Shown: piece after piece, positions 30,301 through 64,000 of the stretch
How positions within the stretch are numbered: the stretch's first letter is position 1
How the letters are laid out: each line of letters begins with the position of its first letter
DNA from: Tubulanus polymorphus
Lineage: Eukaryota; Animalia; Nemertea
Direction of reading: 5' to 3'
DNA: 64,000 nucleotides
NCBI RefSeq assembly: GCF_964204645.1
Contig: NC_134027.1
Span: forward strand, 21,538,560-21,602,559
Made by a program: the position numbers and the translations under genes
Notes under the pieces: generated by a model
Database searches by the model: none
What the model saw: the letters and a program-made list of their open reading frames with translations, nothing else
What the model was told of the DNA's origin: nothing

Positions 30301-33300
30301 GTCATTATTAGCCAATCCGGACCCGGTCAAGTGTGGCAGAGTTTTGTGTCTTGGCTGGGTGTAGTGATGCCATCGGGTTCAAATCCCTGCCGAGGCAAGA
30401 TGTGTAGATTTCCTGTTGGATGAAGTTCTTGGTGTTACTTAGTTTGGTAACTAACCAAAATTTCATCTTGTTTAACATTCTAATAAATTCTCTGAATATT
30501 CTGTCTGAAAGAAATGTTAGAAAAAACAAGGAGTTTGATCTTTAGGTTGTGGGTTATTCTTCTATCCAGGGAATTCCTCCGAATTCGAGGAACTGGTTTT
30601 TCATTGTTGTTCATTCTGTTTATATTTTCAGAAATTGATCAGAAAAGTTGAACATTTAAACTTGAGTCACAATAAACTTTTGAGGATTGAACATTTATCG
30701 GAACTGAGTGAACTGATGAATTTAGACTTGTCTCATAACGCGCTACACGATTTAAACGCTCTTCATACGAAACTGGGAAACTTGAAAAAATTGAATCTTT
30801 CCGGAAACAACATTACTTCATTACAAGGTACATGTACAGATTTGTTTGCTTTTACTTGCGCACGATGGTCACCCTCGATAGAACTAATCGGTCCCTGGTT
30901 AAACCTTAAGATTGCTTACCGGGTAATTTGTACCAGAATGCTTAGACCGTATATATAGATTGAGTCCTGTTCTGGAGGAGGGCTATTACATTTAGTTCAT
31001 TCGTCCATCATTTGTCCATCCGTAGCTAGATGGAGTCAAGCGCTTTTTTGGAGATGTTTCCAACCGGCTTTGATGTGTCGTCTTGATGCATCTACCCTAG
31101 ACACATCTGCTGCCCAAAAATTAGCCCGATCAGATTTACAATGCCATTGTCAAAGTTCAACGCAAAATCTTATCGGTTATTTGTATCAGCATGCCACATT
31201 GGGCTCTCAACAAGTATTGGTATGTGTTTATACAGAAGGACGTTATGAGGTCTTGTGGCATTAGATGCTATTGGGTTATCAACAAATCCTTTTTTGATGA
31301 ACCACCTTCTCCACTATCCATTGGACAAATGAACCAGAGTACAGAGAAAATATAATGTGCTCTCTATGAATTCAATTTCTCTATAAAGCCTAAATGAACA
31401 TATTTGTTATCTTATTTTTCAGGATTGTCAAAACTTTATTCTCTTGAAATACTCGATTTAAGCAGTAATGATATTTCCAAGGTAAACTTCATTTTAGAAA
31501 AAAACATGGCCGTAGAAAATCATTTAGTGGTTGGGTTACTGGGTATTTTTTTTATTTAAGGTGATGGAAGTCAGTCATATCAGTCGATTACCCTGTCTTG
31601 AGAAACTATTACTAATGGGTAACCCAGTAACTATAGTTTTAGACTATAGGACTAAAGTGTTTGAACTGTTTGGTGATCGCTGTAGTGAGGTATGTGTTAT
31701 GTACTGTTTACCTGTTAACCTGTTCTGCAGTTGTTAGTTATCAACAATTGAAATAAATGCCGGGGCTTGGTTTCTCGAAGAGGCTTAGCCTTTTAATGGT
31801 AAATTGATTTGGTAGTTAGTCCGTTTCTTGAAACTAGCCCCTTAAATCAGATTTAGACCCAATTTGAGAGAGCTTTGTCTGGAGATTGCAGACCAGCGAG
31901 CTCGCTGTATGTAGATACTTGCCCTTATATGTACTGTTTACCTGTTAACCTGTTCTGCAGTTGTTAGTTATCAACAATTGAAATAAATGCCAGGGCTCGG
32001 TTTCTCAAAGAGGCTTAGCCTTTTAATGGTAAATTGATTTGGTAGTTAGTCCGTTTCTTGAAACTAGCCCCTTAAATCAGATTTAGACCCAATTTGAGAG
32101 AGCTTTGTCTGGAGATTGCAGACCCCTATTTTGGCAGCGAGCTCGCTGTATGTAGATACTTGCCCTTATTTGTCCTTTTCATTTATTAGTGCTCCCATCA
32201 AAGTCTGTCCCTGAACCCAACCCTGTCAGATAAGTCTTGGTAGATATTCTTTTCAGTATGGTACGTATATTTCTTGTTGCAGTTGTGTTTAGATAATTTA
32301 CGCCCGAGTCAGAAAGAATTGGACACTGTGGCGATATTACAAGCTATTCATAAAGCTCGACAAGGACGAGAAAAGTCGAAAAAACCAAAAAAGGTTCGGT
32401 TAATCAGACAAGAACTTCATTTGTAGAAATTCTGCAAAGCCCAACAATCAATACATGTTTAATATAATTTTAGGGCACTCTACTGTTACACCAGAAATAG
32501 GCCTACATTTATACAGTTGACTACACTTATATTGTTACTGCATATATGGTAGAAACATTTATATCGTATATTTCATTTGGCCTGATGAAACTCTTCAGTT
32601 TAGTAGCTCTCAGGGAATGAGCACAATTCGTAGGTAAAACAAATCGATCTGAAGTAATTGTTCCTGCCTACCACTGTCTGTGTGTGTGTTGAAAATTGCA
32701 GTTTAGCGGAATTTAATCAAAATGATAGACAAGGCTTCAGTCTTGCTGTAGTGCCCTAGGGCACTTTTTAAAAGAGTAGTAATGATATGTTTTCATCAAT
32801 ATCATGAATCCTGGACCTCAAGAGCACAGCACCTTTGGTCTTCTAGTATTTATATGCTTATACTGTACTACACTTACGAATATCATATTGATATTGCAAG
32901 TCCTCGTCAATACCATATAAGGGTAGTTGACTGTATGAGCTTGATAGATTTTTTTAAACCCACTAGAGAAGGCCTGAAATATCGTAAAGGTTCTTAATTT
33001 CATTCTATTTCTGTATATATTTTATCTTATTTTCCGTTGCACCTATTTTGGTTGAATTTCTATTTTGTTTTTTCAGCAAGCTCATTCAGTTTCGATAGCA
33101 GATTTAGAGGAAGGAATATTGGATGATCAAACAGGTAATCATAATGTACGTAATGTGACCTTCATTGGTTTTGTAAACTTATTCAATACAAGTCCACTAT
33201 TGCTAAGATGTTTTCCAAGGATTGATTAACAATAAATACAATATGTTTCATTATCCTGTAATTTAAAATTCAAATATTCTATTTTCTAAAACTGATCAGT

Positions 33301-36300
33301 CCCCCACCTGACTCCAGTGGGTGTGATTTAGTTTGTTATGGAGCTACAACTGGCCGCTCAGCTTTTACGGCAAATAAACTTAAGATATAAAAAAAAACAA
33401 TATAAACTGACCCTTACCTGATGACATGATCTTTGTCTCTCACCTTCCTTTAAAAAACATTTAGCTGTTCAAACTTTCGTGATTACGAGTTAGGAAAGCT
33501 TGATAACCGTGCCAACAAATTAGAAAATTTCATCATTCAACTTATTCATATCTACAGTGAGAACTAGAGAGTCGGATGAAACAGCGACCGAGGGAGCAAC
33601 GAGGGAAGCTGAATATTTTCGATTACAAGTCGAAACTATTCGCGCACAAGGTGGCGAAGGTTGGCTGAGTCTACTTAATGATATACAGATTTCAGATCAG
33701 GTAAAAAAGTTCTATTTTATACAATTGTTTTTGACTAAACCGCTAAGGCTATTGTCTGGATTCATTATTTTACTACGTGCCCTCTGTCTCCTAGGTCGTA
33801 ATGGGCCTTTACTTTTTAGCCCACTTGGGACTTTAGTCCCAGCGGGCTATTGCGTTCACTTTTCGTCCGTCGTCCGTCCGTCCGTCGACGGAATCCAGTT
33901 ATTTTGGGAAGTTTTGAAGACGCTTCAAGGTAATGTCTTGATATTTGGTTTATACATGTATCTACCCTAGACACATCTTCAGCCCAAAAACTGGCCCTGT
34001 CAGATTCAAGATGGCCGACTGGCAGCCATTGTTGTTCGCCAAAAAAAGCACTTTTTACACATTTTCGAAGTTTACGAGGGAAATTTTGAAGACGCTTTGA
34101 TCATTTACCTTGATCTTTCGATTATATTTGAATCTACCAAGGGCCCATCAGCATAAGAAAAATTGGGTCCATCTGACTCGAGATGGCCGTCCTATGACCT
34201 TTTAAGTGCCCAAAAATGTCAAATTTGGCCAGAATTCTAGGTCCTGTAGCTTCCTACTGGTTTGCCATTTCTCATTGCAATTTGTGATGGGTATTCTTTG
34301 TAAAGGGATGTTTTATACCTGAGACAGGTATTTTTGATCTGCCAATTATGATGCAATTGGCGGCCATCTTGGTGTCATTAGTACTTATTTGTAGGTGGGA
34401 AAAAGTTTTTCGACATTATATTGATACCTAAGCATATTTTGCTACAACAATGAATTAGAAAGTTGTAGCGTATAACGTGTTCTATGATTGGGGTGAGTTT
34501 CAAGTTCATTGTTTTTTGTATATGGCCACCAGGGGGCGTTGAATAATACAATATCTTAGTATTTCTATATTATATTCGTACCAATACATATTTTGTTACC
34601 GCAATCAATTGCAAAGTTGTAGCTCATGACATCTTCCATGATTATGGTGAGTTTTAAGGACATTAGTTAATGTATATGGTCACCAGGGGGCGTTGAATAG
34701 TAGAATAACCTGGTATTTCCTTATTATATTGGTACCTAGGCATATTTTGTTACCATCATCAATTGCAAAGTTGTAGTTCATGACATGTTCTATGAATATG
34801 GTTAGTTACAAGGTTATTGGGTTTTGAATATGGTCACCAGGGGGCGTTGAATAGTAGAATAACTTAGTATTTCCATATTAAATTGTCAACGAGGCATTGT
34901 TTGTTATCACAATCAATTACAAAATCGTAGCTGCTGACATGTTTTATGATTGTATTGAGTTTCAAGGTCATTGGTTTTTGTATATGGTCACCAGAGGGTG
35001 TTGAATATTGAAATTCTTAGATTGTTGAGCATTTGAAACCACTTCCCAAGTGGGCATGGTGTCCCTGGACCCCTAGTTTGTTTCTTTCTTTGATAGGTGT
35101 TCGATGTCGGTTCAGTTAATTCAAATAGAGTGTCTACATCAAGTGAACAGTCATCTGTCAGGTAGTGGAGTAGAAATTTGATAATCATTTGCTTCAAATA
35201 CGACCTTACTTCAGTAGAAAAAGATTTCTGTTTTGAAAATGGCTCATTGAATTGAGTGGAAACATCACTACTCTCTTCGCGTTTCTTCAATCATAATTGT
35301 GGATCATAATTTTTCTTCAAAAGAAAAGACATCTGTTGCCCTCATTCACGCCAGATTTCGACATTCTGGACCCACTTCTACATTAGATGAGTTTATTTTT
35401 TGCCCAATTAAAATTCTATGGGTTTCCTTTGGATCCAGTTTGACATCAAGAAGCAATTCCCGAGTTTAAAAAGTGAATATCTCATCAGAAAGTAACTCTA
35501 GAGTCATATCTGAATCCATAACTGTTCAGCAGTATCTCTGCATCAGCCTTTTACGATGAGCAGATTTTCTAAGCAGATCTTATGAAGATCAGCGTTGAAT
35601 ATTGTTCGCTAGAAAATGAGCGATCGCATTCTCCCTTGGTGAAATTGGTTACAAGAAGCTTTGAGTACATATAAATTCTCATGCAACCTCGAAAGCAACT
35701 GAAACCTTTTTTGTTGCGCTTTGTTTTCTAGATCTGAAGAGATCGTGCAGTCGGCCACTTGTTCGAGTATCATTCCACCGCAGTTGCCCGGAGTCGAGGA
35801 TAGCGAATTCGTTACGCACGTGAAACTGCTTATCTCTAGTTTAAACATACAGACTCATATACCGGGAATAACCGGTTCTCCGTGCGACGAAAACGAACAC
35901 ATATTCTCCGTGCTTTGGTGTCGGTGTTACCCGTATCGATCGGAGCAGACGTCGTTTTTCGCTAGCGTCGTTTTAACCAACGAAATGTTGCACATATTCA
36001 AACTGAAATGTTCGACGTCGCGCAAAACCGATCTGTCGCACGTCTACAGCATTCCGATCAACAACTTACAAGAGGTCATCGTCGGTTACTGCGGAATGTA
36101 CGCGCGCGTCGAAGAAGCGTTTATCGGGTCGCCGGGCACGTTTACGTTTCGACCGGCGGACGCGTTTCAAATCGAACGGTTCGTCGCTCGATTGCGCGAT
36201 CTGTGTAAAATCAACGATCAAGACGTGCTTCTGGTCGTACAGTATGCCGACGTAGCCGAGCAGCGGCTACAAATGGAAATCCAACGCCACGAACCGCGCG

Positions 36301-38963
36301 AAAATCTCGAAATCGTGCACTACACGTACGTCGAAACGCAGCAGCAGCTGACGGATAACCGCGTGTGCTCGGCGGTCGCGCTGACGCGACGCAATCTCTA
36401 CCTGATTCACGAGAATATCCTTCATTTTCCGATTCCGACGTTCGAAATCAACGCGACGCCGACCGACAAATATCAATACGAAATCGTACAAATTCATCCG
36501 CTAGTGAATACGGTGAAGGACGTGCAGTTTATGACCAAGAGCGACGAATGTTCGGGAAAGCTTGAAGTGTTGTTGTACGGTTTAGAATTGACGTTTGAAT
36601 CGGTTCCTCTTCCGTACAAAACCGAATTACCGGTTGGATCGGCCATCGAAGTCGTAGAGGATTGGTCACCGGTGTTTAAATGTTTTTTCCTATCTGCAGA
36701 GAAAAGAGATTTATTCCTCTGTCAACTGATGCAACAAAGGCGTAAATTATTACTGCCTATAGATCGCGCTGAAGGAAATGGTCACAATGCAAATTTTGAT
36801 GCTGTAAGTTTAGAAGGCGCAACAGGATTTGGATCGAATATGTCGGAGACAACACTCGATGAGGAATACTGGGAAACTGCTGAGGAGGACGATATGATAG
36901 ATACCCCTGGGCGGTTAACTCCAGATCCATCAAATTCAACAAAGGAAAAGAACCTCGGACTTGGAAATTCGGTTTTAAAGCTTAGTGTACAGAGTGAAGA
37001 AAATGACTTTTCAATCACTGATGAATTGGTTTCAGACCAACAAGTGACAGAGCCAGATCAACTTGCAGAGGTAGACGTAGTCTCACAAGAGCAATTGGAC
37101 AAGGAAACACCCTCAGGTCAACAATCAGATATGTATAAACCCTCAGACCAACAAAGTGACATGGACAAACACTCACAACAGCTAATATACATGACCAAAC
37201 CCTCAGAACAGCAAACATCAATGGAAACATTCTCAGAACACCAGCAAAATGACATGAATACTTTGCCAGAAGAGCAAGCTGATATGATCACACCCACAGA
37301 AAAAGAACCTGATATGGATAAATCCTCAGAACAGCAAACGTATATGGGGACATCCTCAGAACACCAGAAAATTGACATAAATACATGCTCAGAAGAGCAA
37401 ACTGATATGGTTACACTCTCAGAAAAAAAACCTGATGTGGAAAAACCCTCGGAACAGCAAACTGACATTGATAAACCCTCACAACAGGAAACTGATATGG
37501 TGAAACCTTCAGAACAGACAACTTACAGAGAGAAACCCTCGGAACAGCACACTGACATGGATAAACCTTCAGAACAGTTCGAAAGTGAGGTTGAAGATTC
37601 TAAACAAGCGCTCTCTACTGCGAAAACAGATGATAGCCTTCAGGATGGATTGAAATGTTCACCAGCACCGAGTTCATCTTGTTGCACAACATCCGCTTTA
37701 CCATACGTTTATGAAAACTCGGAGTTCGTGGAACAAATTGAGACTCAAATACGCAACACAGAAAATGTGATGGAATTATCATCAGCCATGAAATCATTGT
37801 CCCAGAAGTCTGGTGATGAAATCATTAACTATTTCCATAATAACCTCGTGCAATGCGGTCTCGAAAATGAAGAATTGAGGCACATTTTATGGAGTCCAGT
37901 TATTCCTTACGCGAGCCCGGATGTCACCGTTGTAACGTGTATATTTCTGAGCAGTAAAGCGATATATATAGTGTCGGATGAAGAAACCGTGATAAACCGA
38001 ACGCAACCGACGACCTGGCAAAAACATGTCCGAACTCAATCCGATTCTACGGTCGGCGCGCACAGAGATCCTATCCCTGTTATGAAAACGCCGTTACAAG
38101 AATCGTTGCGCTGTATCGCCGTATTACCGCTGAAAAATCTTAAACAAGTCGACATCGGATTATTCGACCAGTGTTTCCGGTTAGCCGGTATAGACGGCGA
38201 CAGCGTCTACACGTGTATGGCGCGCAGTATGAGTTTGACCGACGCGTTCGTTCATCAGTTGATGTCGGTGTTGATGAAGTGCCCGGCGAATTCGTCATCG
38301 GACTATTCGAGCAGCGATTCGGAGCAGGACATCTACGCGCGGTATTCGCGCAGCGAGCCGATCGCGTCGCAAATAAGCCAACGATGCAAGGTGAAATTCG
38401 TCTACGCCAGCGAGGAGTCGATCGCCGAGCTGTGCTTCCTCATTCACAGATACCTGAAAATAAAGATCGAAAATCCGACTGCGTTCACGATTCTCAGTTA
38501 TTTGCTCGTTTTCCGACTCGAACCGTCGTCGGAATCGCCGCGAAATCGCGGTCGGCGCGACCAAGCGCGCTCGATTATATTGACCGATCGATATCTCTGT
38601 ATCGTCAAAGAGGACTACGCGAACTATCCGCTGTTGGATTTCGTACGCAGTCCGCCGGACAACGTCCAGTACGAGGTCTGCGACGTTCGTCGACTCGAGT
38701 ATCTGCGTCGCGTCGTCGTCAGCGACTTCACATCGAACGACGTGACGTTCGAGTTCTCCGACCACGACGAGGACATCGTCGTTGATCCGAGTAAGGATTA
38801 CTTTCGCAAAGACGAAGACGGCGGCCGAGAGTCGCCGAAATCTGTTTCGTGGACGATTATCGTTCAGAACAGCCGCGACAAGGACAAGTTGTTGAAACTT
38901 ATCGGTAAACAATGGAGCGATTGTCACAACGGTTCTCAGTTATCGATACAAGTCAGTACATGA
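24393..38963 (+). CDS. NISCH: Nischarin-like protein (PX + LRR + long C-terminal region), ~17 exons; first 24393-24479, last 35732-38963
   Basis: PX exons WTVKHRYSEFHDMHEK and LPPKKIFG..FLDFHKY; LQLYAINERLK; DIGHILDF; LRR exons (LDLSHNAL..LHTKLGNLKKLNLSGN; LPCLEKLLLMGNP..DYRTKV); KELDTVAIL; large terminal exon. Confidence 0.9.
25199..25437. mobile_element. Two abutting Harbinger-like MITEs (25199-25327 and 25331-25437) sharing a CAG junction
   Basis: TIR pairs ggtccagttgctcaaaaattggtt/aaccaatttttgagcaactggacc and ccagttccacagttgtgag/ctcacaactgtggaactgg. Confidence 0.8.
26754..27141. mobile_element. GC-rich MITE in nischarin intron
   Basis: TIRs agggacacatgagcgtattttttgcccga / tgggcgaaaaaatacgctcgtgtgcccct. 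Confidence 0.75.
28390..28600 (+). repeat. Dispersed repeat with a tRNA-like segment (related copies at ~30190-30320 minus, ~52830-52910 minus, ~55520-55700)
   Basis: tctagtgtggcagggtttc..ggtt(t/c)gaatccctgccggggagg preceded by gattggctaataatgacatcatctaagc; several copies in the window. Confidence 0.6.
29497..29764. repeat. Near-perfect long inverted repeat (~105-bp arms, ~45-bp spacer)
   Basis: taggcctaatgttcgttaccggaagtaggtatcag...gcattttctc is mirrored by gagaaaatgc...ctgatacctacttccggtaacgaacgttaggccta. Confidence 0.92.
31699..32168. repeat. Tandem duplication, 2 x ~230-240 bp, intronic
   Basis: atgtactgtttacctgttaacc...gtagatacttgcccttat occurs twice. Confidence 0.92.
33813..35077 (+). 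mobile_element. Helentron/DINE-1-like non-autonomous rolling-circle element; further copies at ~41347-42280, ~28078-28380 (5' part), ~45305-45580 (3' part, minus)
   Basis: T-rich start; subterminal IR gcccacttggga/tcccaagtgggc; (TCCG)n microsatellite; internal 154-bp tandem units; ends ..cccctagt followed by T-rich sequence. Confidence 0.8.
37110..37580 (+). repeat. Coding tandem repeat, ~15 x 10 aa (consensus ~SEQQTDMDKP), in the nischarin last exon
   Basis: Visible in the translation of ORF 35721-38963 and as a ~30-nt period (ctcagaaca.caaac). Confidence 0.85.
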
Positions 38964-45940: not shown

Positions 45941-48900
45941 TTATTCATTTCTGTCAGCAATAGTTATCCATATTTCTTTATTAGGATGGGTTACCAGACC
46001 GTAGACCGGAGTGATAACTTGGTCGGGAACGAGCTTTATTTCGAAGTGTCTGACAATTCGTGCAATGTAAATGTAGCTTTCACTTTGTGCGAATCTGAAT
46101 CCTGGACATTTTCTTTTACCAGCGAATCCAAACGGTTCAAACGCGTGTGTTGGACGAACTTTCACTCGTTCTTTCGAGAATCTTTCTGGGTCGAATCTGG
46201 AAATTCAAAAAGACTCATTGGCTCCAATAATCGCAAGCTGGGTCATAATAATAACGCGTTCATGCCGTCGTCCAATCGTACTTACTTTTGAGGTTGTGGA
46301 TATAGCTTTTCATCACGGAAGCTAACCCCCAATGCGTGAAATACTGGTGTCTATAATTATTACGATTTACATATCAAACATTTCTCTTTTCAACTACATG
46401 TTCCCTCAAAAATACAGGACGTAAATTACTCACTCCTCGGGGAACAATGTGGCCACCCAGCACGATGTCACTATCTGGTTTGTAACGAGCTGCTGTAGCA
46501 GATACAATAGCACAGCGCAAAGTTTCATCAACAACTTGTCGCAAGTATCTGAAACCGCAAATTCTAAAATCTAAACTAAAATCTCAAAAAAGTACAAAAA
46601 GTATTGATACAATTTTATGATCGTAATACTATTGAATGAGTAGAATGACTCACGGCATCCGTTGAACCAAATCAGGAGTGATATCTTCATCTTTATCCAA
46701 TGTTTTTGTCACTTCTTTGAATAATTTCTCTTGCACATCGGTATGTTTTGCCAGGAAAAACAATGCCCACGTCATTGCTATTGAATGAAAACTGATTTAT
46801 CACTTCTACGTGTCTATATACGTGAAATAATATAGCTAAATGCAACACGGATCAAGAATCGAAAATAAAACGGATGGATGCGTGAAATTGCCAAGAAATT
46901 ATCGTTCTTGGCGAAGCTCGCTAAAACCCGTGATAATGACAGATCTGTGACGATTTCAGTGTTTTCTTCGTGTATTGATTTACATGTATTTACTTATTGC
47001 TATGAGTGATATTGCTTTTAATTCGTATCTATATTCTCTAATTATATGGTTATGTGGTTTGTAAGTTGTGTCATGGGTTGTGAGTTTTTCGTATTCATAT
47101 GTGTAGATTAGGCATGCGGGGTACGGCAATTGTAAGTACTGGGTAAGACTTGATATGGTGGGATTTGTGAGTTTAGTTTGTAGCAGAAGGTTTGTGTCAT
47201 CTTGGAGTAATCAGACTGATCAGATTGTGGGCCTTTTAGTGTGTAGTTTATGGGCTACTGTTTGTAGTGCCTTGGCACAGAAATATCTATCAGTCTGGAT
47301 GGCAATTTGTTTACAAGAATCGGAAGAATGATGCATTTTGTTTCCGATTTCAAACTACTTTTTTCGTAAGGGACGCAACGAATAAATACATGTACATTGT
47401 AATTCAAATTAGAATATCAACTTAATATAGGGAAAATAAGGGATCTCTTCACCAAGGAACTGAATAAAAAATTTTGCCAAACATTGTTTAAGCGGAGTCT
47501 ACCAACACCTATAATAACAAATTGACTCACTTGACGCAATAGTATGCAAGCCACCAGTAAAAAATGTCAAGGAATCAGAATCTATCTGCTCATCGTCATC
47601 AGATTCAAGTATAACATCTATAAGAAGGCGTCTTCTATCAGTAGCCGGGTTATTTCGGCGGCATTCTACTATTTCTGCAACCATCGATTGCAACTTTCCA
47701 AGAGCTGTTAAACATCAAAAGATATAGGGAGACTGATAGATTTTGTTTTCAGAATTTCAAACGGAACCTTAGATACTAATGGTGACTGCGATATACGGAA
47801 TAATGCCACAGGAAGAAATGTCACCAGAATAAAATGCCACCAAATTTTGCGAATATAGGAAAAAAGCCACTGGTAAAAATGCCACTTTTTGTATAGTAGG
47901 AAAAACGCCACCAGGAAAAATACAGTTATTTACATACTTAGATTTAAATTGACAGCATTAATTTTCAGTCATTTTATCGATGATCCCTTCCTATTGAATT
48001 TCCAACTTACTCATGGTATTTAAGTACCAATCAGTTTCCCTGCTTTAAATTTCTTTAGTTTTTGGCTGATTTTATATTGTATATTACTCCTAGCTTGTAC
48101 ATGTACTTATATTTACTATTGTACCTTAATACCCCCTTAGTTTACTCTGCTTGTGATTTGTTTAGTTCATAACTGCTTAACTTCCGTGCATAACTTAAAT
48201 TGTAAATATATATATCTTTATTTACGTGTCATCTCGATTGACAAGCCAGCCTATAATAAGGCTTACAAGACACATTGACATTTACAAGTACAACAAACAT
48301 GTGACAAACTGGTACAACTAATTCAGATTGGATATAATTGGATTAAAATGAATTAGGAATTGCGAAGTTTCATTGCGGCTGATATGAATCTGCAAACACT
48401 AGTTACAATACGACTATTACTTAATAGAATTCTAACCTTATCGATATTTGACAAAAGATATATGTCTAGGCCCAAGATAGCATTAATCTTAGAAAAAAGG
48501 TCATTACGTAAATCAACGTATTTGAGACAAGTGCACAAGAAATGTTCCTCCGTTTCAACTTCATTCGATGTACATGCAACACATATTCTTTGTTCAATTG
48601 GCAGATTACGGTAGCGACCTAGTTCTATGTTTAAGGGGAAAGTACCATTTCTTAATCTTGCTATTGTGGAGCGGTTTGAACGTGATGTGTGTAATTTGAC
48701 ATAATCTTCTGTTCCAAATTTTGGCTTAAGTGAGGTATAAGAACGGAGTTTTGGTTGCAGAGGAACATTTCTTGGCCACGTTAAAGCATAGTTCCTATAT
48801 AAAATTTTTCTAATATCATTCAAAACCTTTTTAATTTGATAGGTATTTAGTGTAGAAAACTGCAAGTTCTCATAAAAATATTCCATATTGCATTCAGTTA

Positions 48901-51900
48901 GTATTGCCAATTAGCTTTGCCAATAACGGCCAGTTCATAATCATAAAGAAACAAGTGTTTGGTATATTACCCCTTGTTTATATATCATTGTGGAAAATCA
49001 AAATGCTATGTACATAACTCGTTAATCAAACAAAAAATTATCAGTCTATTCTTAGTTAGAATTAAATTCATAATCAGTAGTTAAGTGGTAAAAGTCTGGA
49101 AATAAACTGTAGCCTTTTATTGCCATCATTTATTCAGTTCAAGCAGTTGAAAAATCATTGTTGGCATTTTCCCTACGTTTTGTCATTTTCACTGGTGGCA
49201 TTTTTTTCCTGCAATCAGTGTCTGCGGGTACCTGATTTGTAACGTTTATCGTCAGCACTTCCGGGCACCGGTGGTACAGAAGAAACGGTGTGCTCCATTT
49301 CAGCCCAGAGCTATGAAGACACAATATCAGGAAAAATATCAGATGGAATCTTTCGATGGGTTACTTTTCGATGAAATGTAACTTACAATATCAAAACATT
49401 CTCTGAATGCCATAATTTGTTCGTCATCTTTGAAAAAATCTCCAAAAACTTCCTCGCGTAATGGATTTCAAAGCCAACGCAGTCATGGCACTCAAAGCAG
49501 GAATATGTTGCCCGTCAACCTTTGCACTCCATTTTTCAATCAATTCCTCAACTATCTGGAGAATAAATAATTCTGGCTAATTCTTATTTTGCTTTTTATG
49601 CTGTATCCATGTAGAATAGATTGACGAAATTTGGTATGTCGATATTATGGCTAAAATTTTATTAGAGCCGATTTCCCAATTTGACCTCTAGGGGGTCCTG
49701 AACAGGTCACACTTGTAAAATCTGTCAATTGCGATTAGTCCTACAATCATCATCCGATCATGACAAAGCTTGGTATGCAGAAACTATGGCCAAGGCATAA
49801 AAAGTTAGAGCCATTTTCTGGATTTGAACACTATAGCGCGCTGCTTTTTATGCTGTATCCATGTAGAATAGATTAATGTGTAGCCTACCATAGAATAGCA
49901 GGGCCTACACGCCGAGTTTTGCTAGAATCAGAGGACATGAGAATCAGAGGACATGAAAATATAGATATCCTATCGTCGAAATAATGAGATTAAACTCATA
50001 AGGATGTTTCAAAGATTTACCTCGTTGAAAAGTGGGTACAATGAATTAACTTCCTGATGACTGTAACAGCTATCATAAAGTTTTCTCCTCTGGCGACCTT
50101 CCGTACCGTTAGCATAAATCAGTGACTTCGCTCCGACCAAAGGTAGAAAAGCTTTGTACATGTCGGCTTAAAAAACAAGATCTTGTTTATATCACAGTCT
50201 CATTCTTAAAAACATATACGAGTTTGTAGAATACTTTGATGAGACTTACGAGGTCGATCAAAGATTGTCCTATGTTCGGTAAATAGTTCTGGAGTCGAGA
50301 TGCTTACAGCCATCGTTTCCCCGATCCAGAAAGATACAATTGGTCCATATTTTCTGTGGATTTCTAGCAGAAATTCGTGCAGACTACCAGCTTTCCTAAT
50401 ATCTGCCAAATTTCCTTCCCTTGAACAAACAAAAATTGTCAATTCAGTCGATTTGGGCAATACTTGTACAATTTCTACACGCCACATTATCATCTGCTTT
50501 AAAGTGAAAATATGCACACTTTAGTTCGAATGAATTCATGCTTAAACCATGATTATAGATTAGAAAAGTAGGAGGTATTCTAAGAATTGCTAAAATCCTC
50601 CGGGATTAATTCCTTCTTTTCATTAACATTGGAGTATGAAATTTTCGACAGATATTTTCGATAGGGAGCCTTTTACATTTTCCGATTTTAGAGTTCGAAA
50701 GGGGAGGACCATTCCTATTGTGAGATTTTAGCTTGAAGTCAGTGGGAAAGTTGTAGCTTTAGAACAATCTGTAGTTTATTTTAGTGAACGGTTGCACCAT
50801 TCTAGGACCAACCGTTTGGGTCCTTGGAGACTTAATATGGAGATCCCAAATTAAAATCAGGTTTTTTTTACCGGCCAGCGCCTAAACTATAACCACTTTC
50901 AACAAATATCGCTTGAACCAATAGAACGATTATGACGATACTTGGTACACAGGCACCAGACCCGTGCAAATGGAGTATCGGGGGTCCCGCTCCGAAGAAA
51001 ACTTAGTTCCTTGATTTTTTCAATTCAAAAGGCAATATCAAGCAGAAACGTAAATTGTCTCACTTAGGATCAGATGACTTCATTCCAGGGATAGTCGATT
51101 GCCTTTTTGCGTTCTGAAATGAAGAATAAGCATTTAATTGCTTTTAACAAACAACCCGTGGCAATCTATAATTTTACAATAATTTAACAATCTACGTATC
51201 TAGAACGGAAGAGTCATGGGTACATCAAATGGAAATTTCATTTTTAGTTGAGATATACATGTACCTCCAAAAACCAAAACAAAAAACATTTACGATAAAT
51301 AAAAAGTTTTTCCGATTTCATATCAAGTTATCATCTCAACATAAATTCAGAGATTTTCTTCTATAATTCAAAATTCGTTTTTTGGTCGAGGTCCATCGCC
51401 GTCCTAGGGAGATCATGTATGAAAAATGAAAATTTGCTTTTATGTCGAGTTATTACCTAAACATCAATCAATTTACGATTAATAAAAAGTTTTCCCGATT
51501 TTATGTCGAGTTTTTATCCCCACATGAATTCAACTTTCTATTTTCCATAAATTATTTCATATCGTATGGACGCATTCTTACGGGTGCATTCGTACGGAAG
51601 CGTCCCGAGTACATGAGAAAAATGTTTTATTTCTGATTTATGAATTAAGAACAAAAATTCAGGTATCTTTTGATGAGATATAACTCCAGAAAATAGATTT
51701 TGTAATTAAGATAATTTTTTTCCATTTACCGACGAGATATATCTCGTCAAAATACCGGAATTGTTTTGATTAGATCAAAAATACATCCAAAGCATGAAAC
51801 ACTGCCGTCCTGGGGAAATCTTTTCGAATTCAACAGACGTTTTCGATTTTCGAATTAAAAAACAGAAGAAAAAAGAAGGATTTCGTGTCGAGATAAAAAC

Positions 51901-53343: not shown

Positions 53344-55179
53344 TAATGAGATACTACAAAAATCATGAGATATATATATACAATCCAGAGACAAAGAGAC
53401 TAATTCAATTAATCAGAGATGATACAAACTAAAGGAAAATAAACGTAGAAACAGTTACACACTAAAATAGATTAAAGGGGAGCAAACTAAGGGGTAATTA
53501 TAAACAACAATAGTGAGTGTAAATATAAATTAGAACTTGAAATCAGTAGTAAAAAGACAAACTAGGGGGCACTTAAATTAAAACAATGGTGAATACAAGT
53601 TGAGAGACTAAAATAGATGAGAGAACAAATAACAAATAATCAAAGGGGAATCAAGTGTCGAGTTTAACCAGTTTACAGAGGAATTTAGATATAAGTTTAT
53701 TATGGGGTGAAAAACCATTGTTTAGGTTTACAACGTTGTTAGAATTTTCAATTATTAATGCAGATTCCAAAATATGTCTTTTAGTTTTATCGCTGCAAGG
53801 GTAAATTAATTCAGCATAAGCGAAATCAAAATTGTGTGAAGTCTGAAATACATGGCTAGCAACTCCGCTTTCAGGTTTAAAGTTTTTTACATCTAACTTA
53901 TGCTCTTTTATGCGTTGATTAAGGTTCCGACCTGTTTCTCCTATATATATACTTTGTCGCAAACTTTACAACGTATTTTATAAATTCCACAGTTTAGGGA
54001 TTCAGTTTTCGGTTTGTTATTAACTTAAGAAACTTTAGAATTCTCGAGGAAAGGTACATACGGTACAATGATAGGCTGTTTATAGGTAGCCAAGGTAGGA
54101 GTTCTAAGGTTGTTATTTCTAAAATGCGTAGTACCAGCTTTAAGGAGAGCTTTTTTCAATATGAAATCGGGGTAGGCAAGTTTTTTGAGAGATTGGTTAA
54201 TATGTTGAATTTCATCGGGTTGAAATGAGGGGTCGCAAATTCTCAAAGCGCGAAGAAATAATCCTTGAGCCAAGCCGAGTTTAATATCCGGAGAAGTAAA
54301 AGAGAAGTAATGGATGTAGGATTCAGCGTTGGTAGGTTTCCTATAAACCGCGAATTTCAAAAAGGATCCACAGTTAAAAATCAAAACATCCAGCAAAGGT
54401 ATTTTACTATTAGATTCCCATTCATATGTAAAAGCCAGAGACGGGTAAAGGGAGTTTGAATATATAAGAAAGTTATCAACATTGAAGTCAAAGGGAACCA
54501 AGGCCAGAACATCGTCAACATATCTGAGCCAGATTTTAGGGTGACTATTAGTATAAAGAGGCAATATTTCAGATTCAACATGTTCTAGGAATAAATTAGC
54601 TAGAATAGGACTAAGAGGGTTTCCCATAGCGATACCGAATGTCTGTTCGTAAAAACAATTGTTGAATTCAAAAAAGGAGTCCGTCGTACAAATAGAGATA
54701 AGGTCGATGATACAATCCGTAGGAATGCCGAAGTTAATATTAAGTGATGGTAATCTACGTTTTAAGAAATCAAGAGTAGGTCCAAGAGGAACATTGGTAA
54801 AAAGGGAAGTAACATCAAATGATATATATGTCGTTGCCAGGGATAATATTCTTAATACGTTCAAGTAAGTGTTGATTATGGCGAAGGTGCGACGGAGAGA
54901 ACGAACCGAGCACAGGAGATAACTGTTTCGCGAGAAATTTAGATAAGCGGTACCGGTATGTAGGAGAATTACAATTGGAGACTATAGGGCGCAGTGGAAC
55001 ATTATCTTTATGAATTTTAGGCAATCCATAGATATATGGTAAAGAGGGAAGACGTGAATGGAACTTATTCAGAGTTTCTTTAGCGGTGGGACCACGTTTA
55101 ATAATATCCGAAAGACTTCTGTTGAAATTAGCTTGCATACGAGGAAGAGGATTCGATTTAAGCTTCTTATAAACACCTG

Positions 55180-55296
55180 GGGCCAGTTGCACAGTCGTGA
55201 CTTAAGTCCAAAAGTGGTCTTAAATCTTAAGACCGGTCTTAATTTGTTAGAATAGCTATAGAACAAAGTTGGTCTTAATGACTATGCAACCGGTCC
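55180..55296. mobile_element. MITE family A copy inserted in the Penelope ORF, CTG TSD
   Basis: ctg|GGGCCAGTTGCA...TGCAACCGGTCC|ctg; removing it restores LLDNPGVYKKLKSNP. Confidence 0.9.
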
Positions 55297-56159
55297 CTGG
55301 ATTATCCAAGAGAGATTGCATTTTAACATTATAATTATCCAGATCTAAAATCACAATCTTGCCACCTTTATCAGCCTTAGATATTTTAATAGTCTTTAAC
55401 TTCCGTAGTTCTTGGAGGGCGAGCCGAAATCGACGAGATAGATATTCAAAGAGGTTCCTGTTGAGCAAATGATCGCAAATGGCAAATGGTTGATCGCAGC
55501 ACCGCGCGAAAACTTGCGGCACCAATGAGATTGCTCGCTGTGTAATCGCGGAGGTAAATTCCACGGAAGAACTATAAATGGGAAAATGGGCTAAAATTAA
55601 ATGATGTCATCATTAGCTTAGATGATGTCATTATAAGCCAATCAGATATCCCGTTTCATTTCAGCCCTGTATTTCCCATTTAGTTCTTTCGTAACATTTA
55701 CCTGGCTCTAATGAGATTCATAAACGCTCCCAATCGTAATTTGGAAGTCCATAATCCTTATTCCTTACATGCGCTATGATTTTGTACTTGATGCAAATTC
55801 TACGAACGGTAGAACTCTCAAATGGTACGAACTCTCAATGTATATATTTCAACCTAATTCGAAAACCCATTGTCGATATCGACTGTTTGTTCATGAATTA
55901 TGAAAAGGTATTGTTGAATAAATCATATCATACCATCCAGGGAGAAACACACTAGCTAATATGATGGTTATATCAAAGCTGTGGGTAGTTTTGTTTAAGT
56001 GGGTAGTGTAGTGTGATCTGTGTGCATTTGTGGCCAGCGCACAGATCACAACGATCATAGTTAGTGTAGTAATATACGTCCAGCTAGAGGCAATATGTGA
56101 AATATGTGGAAAAATATCAATATTACAAAATTGTTCATATGTTCAAAGATCCATCCATT

Positions 56160-56937: not shown

Positions 56938-57698
56938 GTTTGTACATTTACATATATACAGTCTTGATCGGGCTCTATTTACATTGTCCAGTGACGATTT
57001 GGCCCGGTCCAAATTGGCACCGATCAGGCTTCGGGCCAAATTTGGCCCGTGCCTAATTAGAGAGCGCGTTCACACGCAAACCATTTGTCTGGTGCTCAAA
57101 TTAGGCTCGGGCCTGGTCCGACGTTTTTGGTTGGGCACAATTTGGCCCGGGTCAAACAGGCTCGGGCCCATTTGGCACCCATGTGAATAGTTGTTCCGGG
57201 CCAAAAATGCACGTGTGGTCGCGGCTTATAATCCATTCTTAACAACGGGTCCCCCGGTATGCTGATAAACACGTTGAAACATTAGATACCGGTACACGAA
57301 TAAAAAATGTGAAAACGCTGTCAGAAATTGGTTTAATCATATCGATGGAATACAGTCATAAAGAGTAATAGTAATAGGTTTACACGCAAAATGTATGACA
57401 TCATGCTGAGTGATATTGCACGGTCCCGCAACACGGGTAATGGGCACCTGGTGTACGCGATTTACTTAATCGACTTGGTTGCGGTATTGTGTGGATAAAC
57501 CAAGAGATTTCAAAACTATCACCATATCTATATTCATTCTACATGTTTCAGATGACGCGTAACTGGTGCACTGTACTGCTCAGTCTAGAGCGGTTAATCG
57601 TCGTGTTGTTTCCAGTAATTAGATAAGTAGGCTTTCAGATCAGAGGGCGAGAGGGCGAGACACCACTCATCACCACAAGTAATTTTTTTCCCTAATAA

Positions 57699-60600
57699 AT
57701 GGGGGAGAATGAACACCAACTAGAAAACAATAATGTCAATAAAAATCAATATTATTGTCAATATTGTAAAAAATACATCGATACATCTCATAAAACACGA
57801 CATGAAAAAACTGCAAATCATATAAAAAATGTAATAGATTTTGAAACTCCAGAAAATTCCAATGAAAGAAAAGAACGATTAGAAAATATGAATGTGGATG
57901 AAATAAAATGTGAAGTTTGTAATGAATTTATAGTAAAAAGGAATTATAATAGACATCTCGAATCACAAAAACACCACCAAAATTTGAGTAATAATGTTTT
58001 AGGAAAAGATTATTTTGATAATAAACCTCAACAAGTAAAAGAATCAACTTTAAAAACAAAATCCATTTCAAATAAACCTTACATGGAAAATGTTAGAAAT
58101 TATATTGATTCACTAGAAATAAAAGATACAATTGAAATCTTAGAAACATTACATAGTAAAATTGGTCCTGCAGCTATTATATTTAGATTCTTTAAAGGTA
58201 CAACAATAGAAGATTATAGTAAATTTAATGAAATAATAGAAAAAATACTAGATTTGATAACAGATGTTGAATATCCAAAAATTAGTATCTCTGGGAAAGT
58301 AAGTTTTATAAAGTCAGAAGAAAAAATGGATTATAATATTCAAACACTCTCTGAAGAAATAATTTCAAAAACACAAATAAAAGAGAAGTTAGAAAAAATA
58401 TTAAATGAATTTAAACGTCATATTGAAGAAAGATATTTTGAGGGTTCTGGCTTAACATTGAATGAAATTATATATTTAGATTTAAATGTTTATAATACAA
58501 AAAGAAATAAAACATCAAAAAGTAATAAAATGTTTAAAAATGATTCAAACTTTACAACAGAAAAGGATATTAAAGCATCATCTTATATTAAATTACCATT
58601 TATAACAAAAGCAGTAATAAATATTCAAAATGAAGATAATAAATGTTTTCTATGGTCAATTATTAGTTGCTTACATCCAACACAGGAAAATGTTTGTAGA
58701 ATAACAGATTATCGGAAATATGAAACATTATATAAAATTGATCAATATCCAGTAACTATAAAAATGATTCCTAAAATAGAAAAAATTAATAATTTAAAAA
58801 TAAATGTATTCGAATTAATGCAATTACCAAAGACAAAAGGTGAAAATATTAAAGATTATACATTGGAAGCTTTATATTTAACAGAATATTATGATGATGA
58901 AAATGCTATAGATTTGTTATATTACAAAAAAGATGAAAATGAACATTATATGTGGTTAAAACAAATTGATTTATTCTTTAGAACAGAAAGTGATCATCAT
59001 AATAAAATTTATCTATGTAGAAAATGTTTATCCAAATTTATGACTGAGAATACATTATTAAAACATAAAGAATTATGTGATAATAAAGATTTTTGTAAAT
59101 TAATAATGCCAACAGAAAAAGATTATAAATTGAAATTTACTAATCATAAATTTAAAAATATTGTTCCATTTGTAATTTATGGGGATTTTGAATCGTTGAA
59201 TAAAGAATTAACTGATCAAGATAGAAAAGAAATATATAACAAAAAGCAATTATTAAAATCAATGGATAAAGGAAATGATTTAAATGAAGACATAATACAA
59301 GACCCACCAATTATAAATACAATTAAAAAAGTTCATCAAAGAGCTGCTGCTTATGGAATTTACATAAAATCAAATTATCCTGAATTATATGAAAGTCAAT
59401 ATATTTCTTTTAGAGGTGAAAATGTAGTTAATGATTTTTGTGATAAAATTATTGAATTAGAAATTTTGCAAAATTATTAAACAAAAATAAAAGAATAGTT
59501 ATGACAAAAGAAGATGAAATTGATTTTAATTATGCAACTCATTGTTGTTACTGTGAAAAACGTTTTTATTCATTTGATAAAAAAGTTAGAGATCATGATC
59601 ATTTAAATTCAAAATATCGTGGAGCTGCTCATGAAGATTGCAATTTACAAGCTAAAAAAGTAAATTTCGTACCAATATTATTTCATAATTTATCAGGATA
59701 TGATACCCATCTATTTATAAAACAATTATCGGGAAAATTGGGCACAATTAATCAAGAAATAGAAGAATATAATGCTATGAATGAAGCAAATGTAAGAAAA
59801 TATGATTTTAAACTATTAGCTAAAACATCTGAAAATTATATTTCATTTCAATTTGGTTGCATTAGATTTTTAGATTCTTATAGATTTCTAGCAAGTTCAT
59901 TAGATAATTTATCAAAATCATTAGTTGATAATGATTTTGTTATAACTCGATATTATTATCCAAATGAACAAGATTTTAAATTATTGAGATATAAAGGCGC
60001 AATTCCTTATTCATTTTATAAAACACATGATGATTTTAATGTAACAGAATTATTAAAAGATCAATTTTATGATCAATTAAAAGAGGAGTATGTGAAAGAC
60101 GAAGTGTTTAATAGAACATTAAATATTTGGAACCATTTTAAGATGAAAAATCATGGTGAATTAGTTGATTTATATTTAAAATCAGATGTTATGATATTGG
60201 CTGACATATTTGAAAAATTTAGAGAAGTTAATCTAAACCATTTTAATGTTGATCCTTGTTATTGCTACTCTAGTCCTGGTTTAACCTGGCAATGTGGTTT
60301 AAAATATAGAAATGTAGAATTAGATTTATTAAAAGAACCAGATATGGTTTTATTATTTGAAAAATCAATTAGAGGTGGAATTAGTGGTGTTATGGGAGAT
60401 AGGTATTTTAAAGCAAATGATGAATATAAATTATTATATATTGACGCTAATAATTTATATGGTTGGGCAATGATGCAACCTCAACCATATAAAAATTTTA
60501 TATTAACAGAAGTTGAAAATGATGATAAAACTGATTGGGAAAGCGCAATTATTAGTTTAAAAGACGAAGCGCCAATTGGTTATTTCTTTGTAGTTGATTT

Positions 60601-62757
60601 AGAATATCCTGAAAATATAAAGTTTAAAACAAGAAACTTACCTTATTGCCCAGAACATTTAACTGTAGATGATAGTTATTTAAGTGAATACCAGAAGAAA
60701 ATAAAACCGAAAGATCATGTTTTTACAGAAAAATTAATACTTACTCAAAATAATAAATACAATTATACTGTTCATTATAGAATGTTAAAATTTTATCTAA
60801 AACAAGGAATGAAATTAAAGAAAGTACATAGATATATTGAATTTAATCAATCGAAGTGGTTAGAAAAATATATAGATTTCAATACTCAACAGAGAACCAT
60901 ATCAAAAACAGATTTTGAAAAAGATTTCTTTAAATTAATGAACAATAGTTTTTATGGTAAAACATGTGAAAATATTAGAAATAGAAATGATATTGAATTA
61001 GTAAATAATTCTGAAAGATTAAGACATTTACAATCAAGTCCTAGACATTTAGGAAATAAAAGATTTGAAGATTATTTAACAGCAGTTAAATTAAAAAGAA
61101 CATCAATGAAATTTAATAAACCTATATTTATTGGTTCGACTGTTTTAGAAGTATCAAAATTATTAATGTATGATTTTCATTATAATGTTTTACAACCACT
61201 TTTTGGAGAAAAACATATAGAAATATTATATTTTGATTCTGTAACAGCTGACACCCCAATATTATTAAAATGTAATGATAAAATATTGATAAGAAGAATT
61301 TCAGAAATAATTCCAAAACAAAATGAATGTTATATTTCATATGGTGAAAAAGAACTAATACAAATAAATGGTTTAATAGATGTTTGGACAAGAAATGGAT
61401 GGAAAAAATTAAAGAATATTATTAGACATAAAACAAATAAGAAAATCTATAGAGTTAGAACTAAATTAGGATTTGTAGATGTTACTGAAGATCATAGTTT
61501 AATTAAACAAAATGGTGATGAAATAAAACCAACTGATATAAAAATTGGAGATGAATTATTACATAAAAGATTTTACCCAAGAATGAATCATATGTCATTT
61601 GATGAAATAATTGATAATATTTATAATATAGAACCTGAAACATTGGAAGAAAAAGAATATTTTATCAAAGGATTTTTCATGGGTGATGGTTCAGCAGGTG
61701 TGTATAAATATGTTAATCGCACTCAATATCGTTGGTATTTATGCAATCAAGATTTGAAATTATTAGAAAGAATAAAGAAATTTTGCGAAGAAGTTTATTC
61801 ACATAAAACATTTAGAATCATGGACCATATGAAATCATCCGCGGTTTATAGAATATTTGTAAATAATCCTAAAGATTTTGCTATAAAATATAATGATGAA
61901 TTCTATATTCATGCAATAGTGAAAAGTAATACTTCAACAAAAGAAAAGATAGTTCCAGATTATGTATTAAATGCAAAAAATAATTTAAGAAAATGGTTCT
62001 TCATTGGATTCTATGCTGCAGATGGTTCAAAAAGTTTCAAAAACCGCAAAACAATATCTTTAGCTCAAAAAGGAAAAGTTGCTATATCAGGATTGAATAT
62101 ATTATGCTGTTCATTAGGTTTTAATATGAATATTGGATTGATTAAATCTAAACCAAATTGTTTTAATTTAAGCCATGTAGAAAATGAGTTAACAGAAGAA
62201 GTTAAAGATTTATTTGAAATATATAACCCAACTGACTATGTTTATGATTTATCAACAGATGATGGAACATTCAATTCTGGGTTCCCATTAATCCAAAAAA
62301 ATACTGACAGTTACATACTAAAAATCAAGACAAATGATATAACAAAAGACTTAAAAACATTAAAACATCATTTTGATTTTAGCAATTATCCCAAAGATCA
62401 TGAACTATTTAGCAATGATAATAAAAAGATTCCTGGTAAATTTAAAGATGAATTAGGAGGTGATGAAATGATTGAATTTGTTGGGATAAGAAGTAAAATG
62501 TATAGTTACAGAACAAAAGATCATGAAGCTAAAAAGTTAAAAGGAATAACAAAACATGTGGTTGATAAACATATAGAATTTCAAGATTATATAAAGTGTT
62601 TATATAAATCAATTGTAATGAAACACAAAATGAATTGTTTAAGATCAGAAAATCATGAAATGTACATTAATGAAGTTGAAAAAACTAGTTTAAATCCATT
62701 TGATGATAAAAGGCATATTTTAGATGATGGTATAAAAACATTACCTATGGTTATTAA
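57699..62757 (+). CDS. polB: Protein-primed family B DNA polymerase (Zn fingers, putative OTU-like protease motif, endonuclease VII-like insert, 3'-5' exonuclease, polymerase) with intein; split by 1-nt deletions at ~59461 and ~62745
   Basis: ExoI VIYGDFES, ExoII FHNLSGYD, ExoIII YLKSDV; motif A YIDANNLYG, motif B KLMNNSFYGK, motif C YFD|TDS; GKFKDE, KMY, KLKGI and DDKR..DGIKTLP(YGY*). Confidence 0.92.
61238..62302 (+). mobile_element. Full-length intein (355 aa) with LAGLIDADG homing endonuclease in PolB motif C
   Basis: Starts S(VTADTPILL); block B VTEDHSL; LAGLIDADG-type FIKGFFMGDGS and FFIGFYAADGS; block F YVYDLST; ends QKN followed by +1 Thr. Excision restores YFDTDS. Confidence 0.95.
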
Positions 62758-63998
62758 AATGGATCTATATCATCAAACTCGAAATCACTATTGGCTTCTT
62801 CATTTTCATTTAATTGTTCAGGTTCTTCTTCCATTCCATTTTTCTCATTTAAATAAAGTTCTATCTTGTTCCACATTTCATCTCGCTCTCTTTGTTTCTT
62901 TTTGTTTGTTAATTCATCAAATGGAATTATAATATCTAGGTTTAAATAATTTACAATCTTATTTAAAAAGAATTCATAATTTATTGAATCTGTTATTCTA
63001 TTTTCCAAATGATACATTAATATTTGTTTAAATATTTTTTTTATATTTTCCATATCTTCTTCTGTTAATTTAGGTTTTTCATAATAATCGTTAAATAATA
63101 AATATAAATACATTTTCTTTTGTTTTGTGTTAAATGTTGGTGGAATAATTGTTTTTATAATATCTTTTTTAGTTATTTCGCCATTTTTATTTTCTATTAT
63201 TTTCATTTTTTCAAGCCATTGCATATATTCTGGTGTATGATCTTCTATAGAAAATATTTTAAAAATTTCATCAAGATAATTTAATTTTGGATCTATAAGA
63301 AAATTTCTAGTTTTTTCTTCATCCCATAAATTCTTTTGCCATCCACAATCAACACAAAATAACACAGTACCTTCTTGCCTTAAGGTCGCATAACTACATT
63401 GTGGGCATTTTTGTTTATAATTTATTGGTAATAGATTTTCATTAAGCTCTTGGTATTTTCTTACGTTTTCTTTATGTTTTATTGTTCTATTATGTAGATT
63501 TGAATTACTTGTTGTAATAATCAATTTACAATATTTACAATAATATGTTTTTCTTGTTAATTCATTATATTGTTTTTCTAACTTTTCAACTGTTTCTTCA
63601 TTATCTGGTAATGTTTTCTCATATTTTATTTTTTCTAATAAATTATTTTTTCTTTCATTGAATTCAGTTTCAAATTTATTAGAAATTTTATCTATATGTG
63701 CTTTACGAAATTGATGATTCTCCCAATCTTCTATATTTTCAGGGCTATATTTTACTTGACAAGGCTCACAGAAATGATCTTTTATATTATCCTTATCATA
63801 GAATAAGAAAGGTCTTTTCCAAATAACTTCAGGTTCAACTTCGGCAGAATTACTATCAACATTAGCCGTTGCGCCATTAATTCTACACTTCTCTGAATGT
63901 TTTTTAACATAATTTCTTGAGAATAATTTATTACATTTTGGACAGTTTATTTTAGGGGGTTTATAATTTTCATCATGTTTTTTCATATGTCGAGCCAT
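62754..63998 (-). CDS. Element-encoded multi-zinc-finger protein (5' end beyond the window)
   Basis: At least 414 aa open; CPKC..H..C, CEPC..H.....H, YYCKYC..H.....H and CPQC..CVDC; acidic C-tail; convergent with polB. Confidence 0.75.
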   Translation of the reverse strand: MARHMKKHDENYKPPKINCPKCNKLFSRNYVKKHSEKCRINGATANVDSNSAEVEPEVIWKRPFLFYDKDNIKDHFCEPCQVKYSPENIEDWENHQFRKAHIDKISNKFETEFNERKNNLLEKIKYEKTLPDNEETVEKLEKQYNELTRKTYYCKYCKLIITTSNSNLHNRTIKHKENVRKYQELNENLLPINYKQKCPQCSYATLRQEGTVLFCVDCGWQKNLWDEEKTRNFLIDPKLNYLDEIFKIFSIEDHTPEYMQWLEKMKIIENKNGEITKKDIIKTIIPPTFNTKQKKMYLYLLFNDYYEKPKLTEEDMENIKKIFKQILMYHLENRITDSINYEFFLNKIVNYLNLDIIIPFDELTNKKKQRERDEMWNKIELYLNEKNGMEEEPEQLNENEEANSDFEFDDIDPF

Positions 63999-64000
63999 AT

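Follow-up and report, generated by a model that had tools for sequence, protein, structure and literature searches.

The 64,000-nt stretch of DNA analyzed here (the window) contains, near its right end, a polymerase gene interrupted by an intein, and the question is where this intein came from. An earlier note had proposed a direct crossing from a Mimivirus-like giant virus into the protein-primed polymerase of a Polinton, during a virophage-like or co-infecting phase of the latter. The explanation considered probable here is that the intein belongs to a clade of pol-c inteins resident in Polintons, which would go back to one ancient entry from an Imitervirales-type giant virus and would have been kept up by homing between Polinton copies.

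The Element and Its Polymerase Gene

The flank of the element holds eukaryotic host genes, namely a double-RING/IQ gene (4134–5312, minus strand), a gene for a THUMP protein (10180–10962, plus strand), the multi-exon MRPL46 gene (20209–22211, plus strand), a nischarin-like gene (30539–38963, plus strand; PF25625, E 3.5e-45) with a repeat-rich stretch near 37100–37600, and a multi-exon P450 gene (45944–50520, minus strand). Broken retroelement frames, presumably of the Penelope and LINE types, were found on the minus strand at 48353–48910 and 53651–55564, with a reverse transcriptase match at 54028–54864.

A candidate left end of the element was located at 57364–57378 (plus strand), where a period-3 AGTAAT repeat occurs once in the window, with host-like DNA to its left; we take this repeat to resemble Polinton ends. 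The GC content is 37% before 57364, 42% at 57364–57698 and 24% from about 57.7 kb to the window end. Five degenerate 25-nt GGCCC-rich repeats lie just left of the candidate end (56994–57210). The element continues past the window end at 64000, and its right end lies outside the window. The integrase, capsid, ATPase and protease genes expected of a Polinton would be located past the window end, so that the designation "Polinton" is based on the polymerase and its relatives. The element is integrated in what is likely an animal chromosome, as suggested by the gene set of the flank and mainly by the nischarin-like gene.

The N-terminal part of the polymerase gene lies at 57699–59465 (plus strand) and ends in a frame shift at about 59465, found by tblastn with intact relatives. 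It is followed by the core of the N-extein (59465–61237, plus strand), which contains the exonuclease motifs and polymerase motifs A and B and ends with YFD, the first Asp of motif C. The N-extein was classified as a protein-primed PolB (PF03175, E 3e-20), as the earlier note had stated; a weak endonuclease-VII-like zinc domain was also detected in the core (PF02945, E 0.018). The C-extein (62303–62746, plus strand) starts at Thr+1 (TDS) and shows 75–80% identity to intact relatives. Comparison with the C termini of relatives showed that the frame is broken again close to the end of the gene, in its last codons (near 62745). The two breaks may reflect decay or an assembly error; the intein is intact although the polymerase gene of the same copy contains them. 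Convergent with the polymerase gene, an ORF of this AT-rich element on the minus strand (62754–63998) encodes a zinc-finger protein of 414 aa (zf-U1, E 9.5e-7). The domain layout and catalytic motifs of the polymerase resemble those of Polinton/Maverick (adintovirus) PolBs (PMC10748475, PMC8502044, PMC11071308).

The Intein

The intein is a stop-free sequence of 355 aa (61238–62302, plus strand), the translation of which starts with SVTADTP, ends with GFPLIQKN and sits between YFD and TDS. Its first residue is Ser1 and its last are Lys354-Asn355, followed by Thr+1 of the extein; all intein blocks quoted in the earlier note were recovered in this translation. The boundaries are fixed by the three closest polymerases (P0359–P0361; 70–71% identical), in which the site is unoccupied and reads YFD/TDSYILK (here and below, the slash in a motif marks the insertion point).

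The N-terminal splicing region (61238–61570, plus strand) includes Ser1 and block B, Thr83-x-x-His86, and matches the intein N-terminus profile TIGR01445 above its cut-off (E 1.9e-7). Ser1, Thr83 and His86 are invariant across 57 aligned inteins. The LAGLIDADG homing endonuclease (61610–62185, plus strand; with Lys237) matches LAGLIDADG_3 (PF14528) above the cut-off (E 5e-7). Its two motifs, GFFMGDG (61670–61690, plus strand) and GFYAADG (62006–62026, plus strand), keep their acidic residue, as do both motifs in all eight aligned Polinton inteins. The C-terminal splicing region (62189–62302, plus strand), delimited using alignments and a motif census, contains block F with Asp337 and a shortened block G, FNSGF-PLIQKN, ending with Asn355. 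A match to the Intein_splicing profile had an E-value of 4.4e-7, which is below that profile's cut-off, and an intein profile matched two known structures, those of PI-PkoII and PI-SceI, within the endonuclease region only.

The Ser nucleophile, the Thr-x-x-His of block B and Asn355 before Thr place the intein in class 1, and the insertion between the first Asp and the Thr-Asp of motif C, together with kinship to pol-c inteins, identifies the pol-c allele. At the sequence level, it was confirmed that this is a genuine, full-length, LAGLIDADG-bearing intein of the pol-c type, inserted into motif C of a protein-primed PolB of the Polinton type. Judging by the conserved residues, class 1 roles may be assigned to Ser1, Thr83/His86, Asp337, Asn355 and Thr+1. 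Ser1, aided by Thr83/His86, would attack the upstream peptide bond, Thr+1 would receive the N-extein, and Asn355 would then cyclize. Splicing would rejoin the split catalytic motif C (YFD/TDS); the replication of an intact element would therefore depend on it.

The usual, though not obligatory, penultimate His is replaced by Lys354. According to the earlier note, the Mimivirus PolB intein likewise ends in KN. Penultimate Lys was dropped as a lineage marker because it is carried by 170 of the 401 non-Polinton inteins of the set; among the 20 Polinton members, the residue is His in 14, Lys in five and Ser in one. The composition of the intein gives no date for its jump, since its GC content hardly stands out (25.4% against 24.0%) and the candidate donors are equally AT-rich; for synonymous codon use, p was 0.25.

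A Clade of Polinton Inteins

A search with the intein against long proteins gave 319 matches. Among the 120 matches listed, the top ones were protein-primed PolBs with the same intein, namely P0004 (62% identity), P0005 (48%) and P0007 (47%); P0006 and P0009 (46%) and P0012 and P0014 (40–41%) are further examples. The closest relatives in this comparison were other Polinton inteins (39–62% over the full length), followed by the inteins of RNA-primed PolBs (up to 42%), mostly of Mesomimiviridae-type viruses, and Mimivirus as the source of the nearest relative is not supported. Fragments 66–75% identical to parts of this intein are also on record. In a profile search of 1.84 billion representatives, the ranking of which favors multi-intein proteins, the inteins extracted from the 150 matches listed did not add any further full-length host of the protein-primed kind. 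No protein-primed host appeared in the closest-match ranking of scans of viral, metagenome and prokaryote contigs, and the ESM Atlas contained generic intein clusters only.

For phylogenetic analysis, 481 inteins were extracted, of which 415 (310–445 aa) were retained and reduced to 260 at 75% identity. Trees were built from these 260 rows, from a subset of 77 rows that left out three distant archaeal sequences and two odd ones, and from hand-picked subsets of 51 and 54 rows. The inteins of protein-primed PolBs formed one clade (100/99 in two careful trees), which was also recovered from each intein domain alone (97–100). Its members were found only in protein-primed PolBs, scattered across about nine lineages.

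A search for relatives of the extein yielded 6,308 among 7,992 scored proteins; in the 120 listed, 111 motif-C sites were located and four of them were filled. On a 31-row extein tree, the presence or absence of the intein changes eight times, at least seven of these changes being forced by starred branches, and the count does not separate gain from loss. Within the main Polinton group, the branching of the inteins repeats that of their exteins, which suggests a single old entry with subsequent gains and losses. The intein of P0007 groups with that of the present element and that of P0004 (100/94 and 97/86 in two trees), yet the P0007 extein, also assigned to PF03175, matches the present extein by BLASTP no better than E 0.6. 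The intein therefore appears to have jumped, at least once, into a deeply divergent protein-primed PolB (that of P0007), probably across Polinton polymerase classes. Two Polinton polymerase classes with 16% identity have been described (PMC10748475).

Kinship with Giant-Virus Inteins

Outside Polintons, the closest inteins are the pol-c inteins of giant viruses, up to 42% identical (metagenomic members). Phage inteins reach 27% (2 of 50,697 records), the best of 36 prokaryote loci reach 35–36% (L202 and L203), and most archaeal inteins show 23–30% where most of the length aligns, or only partial matches. The expectation of the earlier note that the intein would be nearer to giant-virus inteins than to phage or archaeal ones, and would nest among the former, was borne out, the nesting in a mixture-model tree with an archaeal outgroup. 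Its second expectation, that intein and extein trees would disagree, held in that the exteins belong to different Pfam families; it failed inside the main Polinton group, where the two trees agree.

Pol-c inteins are known from the PolBs of Mimivirus (R322; PMC549080), CeV01 and HaV (PMC2245910). The present intein is like them in its site in motif C (xD/TDS), its Ser/Asn/Thr class, its length of about 350 aa and its LAGLIDADG endonuclease. The similar length and the same D/TDS site given for Mimivirus in the earlier note are confirmed: that intein has 351 aa, begins with Ser, ends with Asn and occupies YGD/TDS (PMC549080). Unlike the giant-virus hosts, which are RNA-primed PolBs (PF00136) with an invariant YGD at the site, the host here is a protein-primed PolB (PF03175), Polinton sites read YFD, YMD, YSD, ASD or YLD, and the gene is part of an element inserted into a chromosome of a eukaryote.

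A shared feature of the Polinton inteins is a block G that is one residue shorter (FNxGF-PL). Each of the 20 distinct Polinton inteins of full length has it (19 were recognized by a pattern and one by eye), as have 41 of 401 other inteins. The 14 viral genome identifiers with this short motif that were looked up comprise seven of IM_01 (Mesomimiviridae), one of IM_07, two of SC10 and four without a label; the IM_01 and IM_07 labels are from the supplement of PMC8575486 and the SC10 labels from PMC7162819, where Megamimiviruses are SC6. The splicing-domain tree unites the Polinton inteins with the short-motif group (100/96 and 98/95), and a mixture-model tree rooted on three archaeal inteins nests the Polinton clade within the short-motif giant-virus group (SH-aLRT 91, quick search). 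In AU tests with 51 rows, p was 0.448 for the Polinton clade placed with the short-motif group, 0.036 with seven Mimiviridae-type stand-ins and 0.008 with L202 and L203. The stand-ins were picked by extein kinship to one IM_16 genome, the Mimivirus intein not being in the set, and their rejection is weak. With whole inteins, support for the short-motif grouping was 74/84 with one stray row, and 42/33 in the 51-row careful tree. The splicing-domain grouping dissolves once the last 12 residues are removed, and the short-motif group was named from that same block G motif. A transfer from a giant virus to a Polinton is likely from these comparisons, and a Mesomimiviridae-type donor may be taken as a lead, derived mostly from one shared derived character, the short block G.

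The transfer looks old. The bases of the homing site match giant-virus sites at only about 11–12 of 18 positions. The mean match was 11.8 of 18 for 17 short-motif viral sites and 11.1 for 118 others, which reveals no special link to short-motif viruses. Of the crossing between virus groups proposed in the earlier note, the separate ancestry of intein and extein and the nesting among giant-virus inteins therefore stand; a recent or lineage-specific jump, for which a comparison of nucleotide homing sites had been suggested as a check, gains no support from these sites or from the main Polinton group with its agreeing intein and extein trees.

The same data bear on direct entry from a Mimivirus-like virus into this Polinton lineage during a virophage-like or co-infecting phase. 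The identical site and similar length of the Mimivirus intein (PMC549080) speak for it, and any transfer requires both DNAs in one cell. This reading is nevertheless improbable, given that other Polinton inteins are the nearest relatives, that grouping with the Mimiviridae-type stand-ins (not Mimivirus itself) is weakly rejected, and that the Mimivirus site printed in PMC549080 agrees with the present one at 10 of 18 bases by hand count. Under the preferred reading of one ancient entry, viral DNA and a Polinton would have met in one cell through infection or through an integrated viral gene; the evidence does not require a virophage phase, and no virophage life is implied.

An indirect route, in which an endogenous giant-virus gene, the intein of a host Pol delta or some unclassified virus acted as source in place of an infecting Imitervirales virus, would fit the long stem of the Polinton clade (0.3–0.5 changes per site). 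The same intein family is present in Chloropicon Pol delta and in integrated viral polymerases (PMC10710043), and since the short motif is also carried by unclassified polymerases of about 1,200 aa (the P0020 group), a go-between is conceivable. The Chloropicon and Promethearchaeota members fall in other clades (grouping with the latter has AU 0.008), and the short motif was not found in any member from a cellular genome, so that such a route is considered unlikely, if less so than direct entry from a Mimivirus-like virus.

The endonuclease domain analyzed alone grouped with the pimascovirus-type lineage MGVL13 of SC2, with support of 89/98 under LG and 63/51 under the mixture model; the superclade SC2 includes marseille-, pitho- and iridoviruses (PMC7162819). 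The intein may therefore be a mosaic, with a Mesomimiviridae-type splicing domain and an endonuclease swapped in from a pimascovirus-type intein. The MGVL13 grouping is rejected by the splicing columns (AU 0.006), as a mosaic would predict, but the drop in support under the mixture model and the failure of the endonuclease columns to reject a Mesomimiviridae-type grouping (AU 0.19) count against it. A mosaic is compatible with one ancient giant-virus entry and has perhaps one chance in four.

In a FastTree analysis with distant archaeal rows, the root fell on the Polinton branch, as would be expected if Polinton inteins were sister to or the source of the giant-virus pol-c inteins, or had been inherited from before the split of the polymerase classes. 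The mixture model shifts the root away and nests the Polinton clade, the diversity on the giant-virus side is far greater, and the inteins are still about 40% identical across exteins of different Pfam families. A reverse or very ancient origin is accordingly the least probable of the readings considered, and entry from a giant virus is preferred.

Filled and Empty Alleles

Two Polinton families were found to hold filled and empty alleles that are 98–99% alike. The P0005 family, a sister family to that of the present element, has 136 members, of which 15 were listed, on contigs of up to 1 Mb; seven of these are filled, six are empty and two are too short. Seven filled and three empty proteins differ by 0.7% over residues 1–1030, by 17.3% in the 48 residues that follow the site, and by 3.4% further on. 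Ten differences are fixed or nearly fixed between the seven filled and six empty members, nine of them within −7 to +44 of the site and one at +104. This concentration around the site, seen at the protein level, is interpreted as the mark of homing with co-conversion of donor flanks. In the P0009 cluster (15 of 121 members listed), the empty P0188 is 98–99.5% identical to the filled P0185 and has the same flanks. There was no empty site among the 15 listed members of the P0131 cluster.

These patterns suggest how the intein may be maintained. The endonuclease would cut empty motif-C alleles in other Polinton copies, and repair of the break would copy in the intein together with flanking donor sequence by gene conversion. 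Because a genome holds many Polinton copies, empty targets would be constantly present, which would explain why the endonuclease is intact; and because a multicopy integrated element supplies targets in every nucleus, upkeep of the intein would need no co-infection. Such endonucleases have also been proposed to harm empty competitors (PMC5871332), and by analogy this could likewise occur between Polintons.

Empty alleles of the P0005 family (P0174, P0176–P0178, P0180 and P0181) vary at the site, which reads YFD/TDA, YGD/TDA or YTD/CDS. Among the extein relatives P0359–P0476, motif C has Cys instead of Thr in 30 of the 111 located sites. Altered motif-C sites possibly represent escape from homing.

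Comparison with Known Systems

Insertions of HNH and VSR nucleases in Polinton polymerases have been published and described as bare nuclease domains (PMC11071308, PMC10748475, PMC8502044); unlike these, the present insertion is a complete intein with splicing and LAGLIDADG domains that splits the active site. In PMC11071308, HNH-type insertions were suggested to stem from intein invasions, with citation of a paper in which inteins are not mentioned, and the word "intein" does not occur in PMC10748475 and PMC8502044. Virus-derived nuclear inteins and inteins in endogenous giant-virus genes were reported from Anaeramoeba, Chloropicon and Klebsormidium (PMC10710043). The Polinton inteins resemble them in virus derivation, location in nuclear DNA and non-allelic jumps between genes, and differ in that those reported are from protists and algae; two supplement files of PMC10710043 do not mention Polintons, adintoviruses, protein-primed polymerases or animals. 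No published Polinton intein was found in the literature searched, as far as its text was available; this coverage was mostly without subscription journals, Repbase and InBase, and an earlier mention is possible.

Pol-c inteins as such are known; a lineage of them that resides in the polymerases of Polintons, in this case on what is likely a chromosome of an animal, appears to be new. Metazoan genomes have been said to be without inteins (PMC5784728, PMC8529194). The intact intein described here, carried by an integrated element in a likely animal, qualifies this rule, with the provision that the gene is viral and not a host gene. It also preserves, in the active site of the polymerase, a trace of gene flow between Polintons and giant viruses, whose exteins belong to different families. 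Direct homing between PolB genes so distant has been called implausible (PMC549080). With filled and empty alleles that are nearly identical, such families open non-allelic homing and target escape to direct tests, and they offer endonucleases that may tolerate variable targets. There is an even chance, in our estimate, that the Polinton inteins form a separate, long-lived lineage that was acquired from giant viruses, homes among integrated copies in animal genomes and can jump between unalignable polymerase classes, with the altered empty sites as escape variants of an arms race with the endonuclease. They would then be the first lineage of inteins to reside in the chromosomes of animals.

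Other Members of the Intein Family

The same intein family was found in type II topoisomerases (sites D/TDG and GD/SA) and in an ADP-ribosylglycohydrolase (GGD/TDT), represented by P0008, P0095, P0101, P0334 and P0030. As far as can be judged from these sequences, the family does make non-allelic jumps to look-alike motifs in unlike proteins (topoisomerase II and ADP-ribosylglycohydrolase; xD/TD sites).

Two loci, L202 (5001–6008; Promethearchaeota-labeled) and L203 (5001–6008; uncultured archaeon), encode PolBs with a pol-c intein of the giant-virus type, unlike typical archaeal ones; the neighboring genes of L202 look cellular. On contigs in Bacteroidales-labeled bins (L204 and L205), a PolB with an intein like those of the viral contigs L155 and L158 was found, and these are probably mis-binned virus DNA. 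A short-motif intein is also present in P0020, P0021, P0023 and P0239, PolBs of about 1,200 aa that are divergent and form a very long branch. In addition, the viral-type PolB P0058 has a dihydrofolate reductase domain inserted between its exonuclease and polymerase domains.
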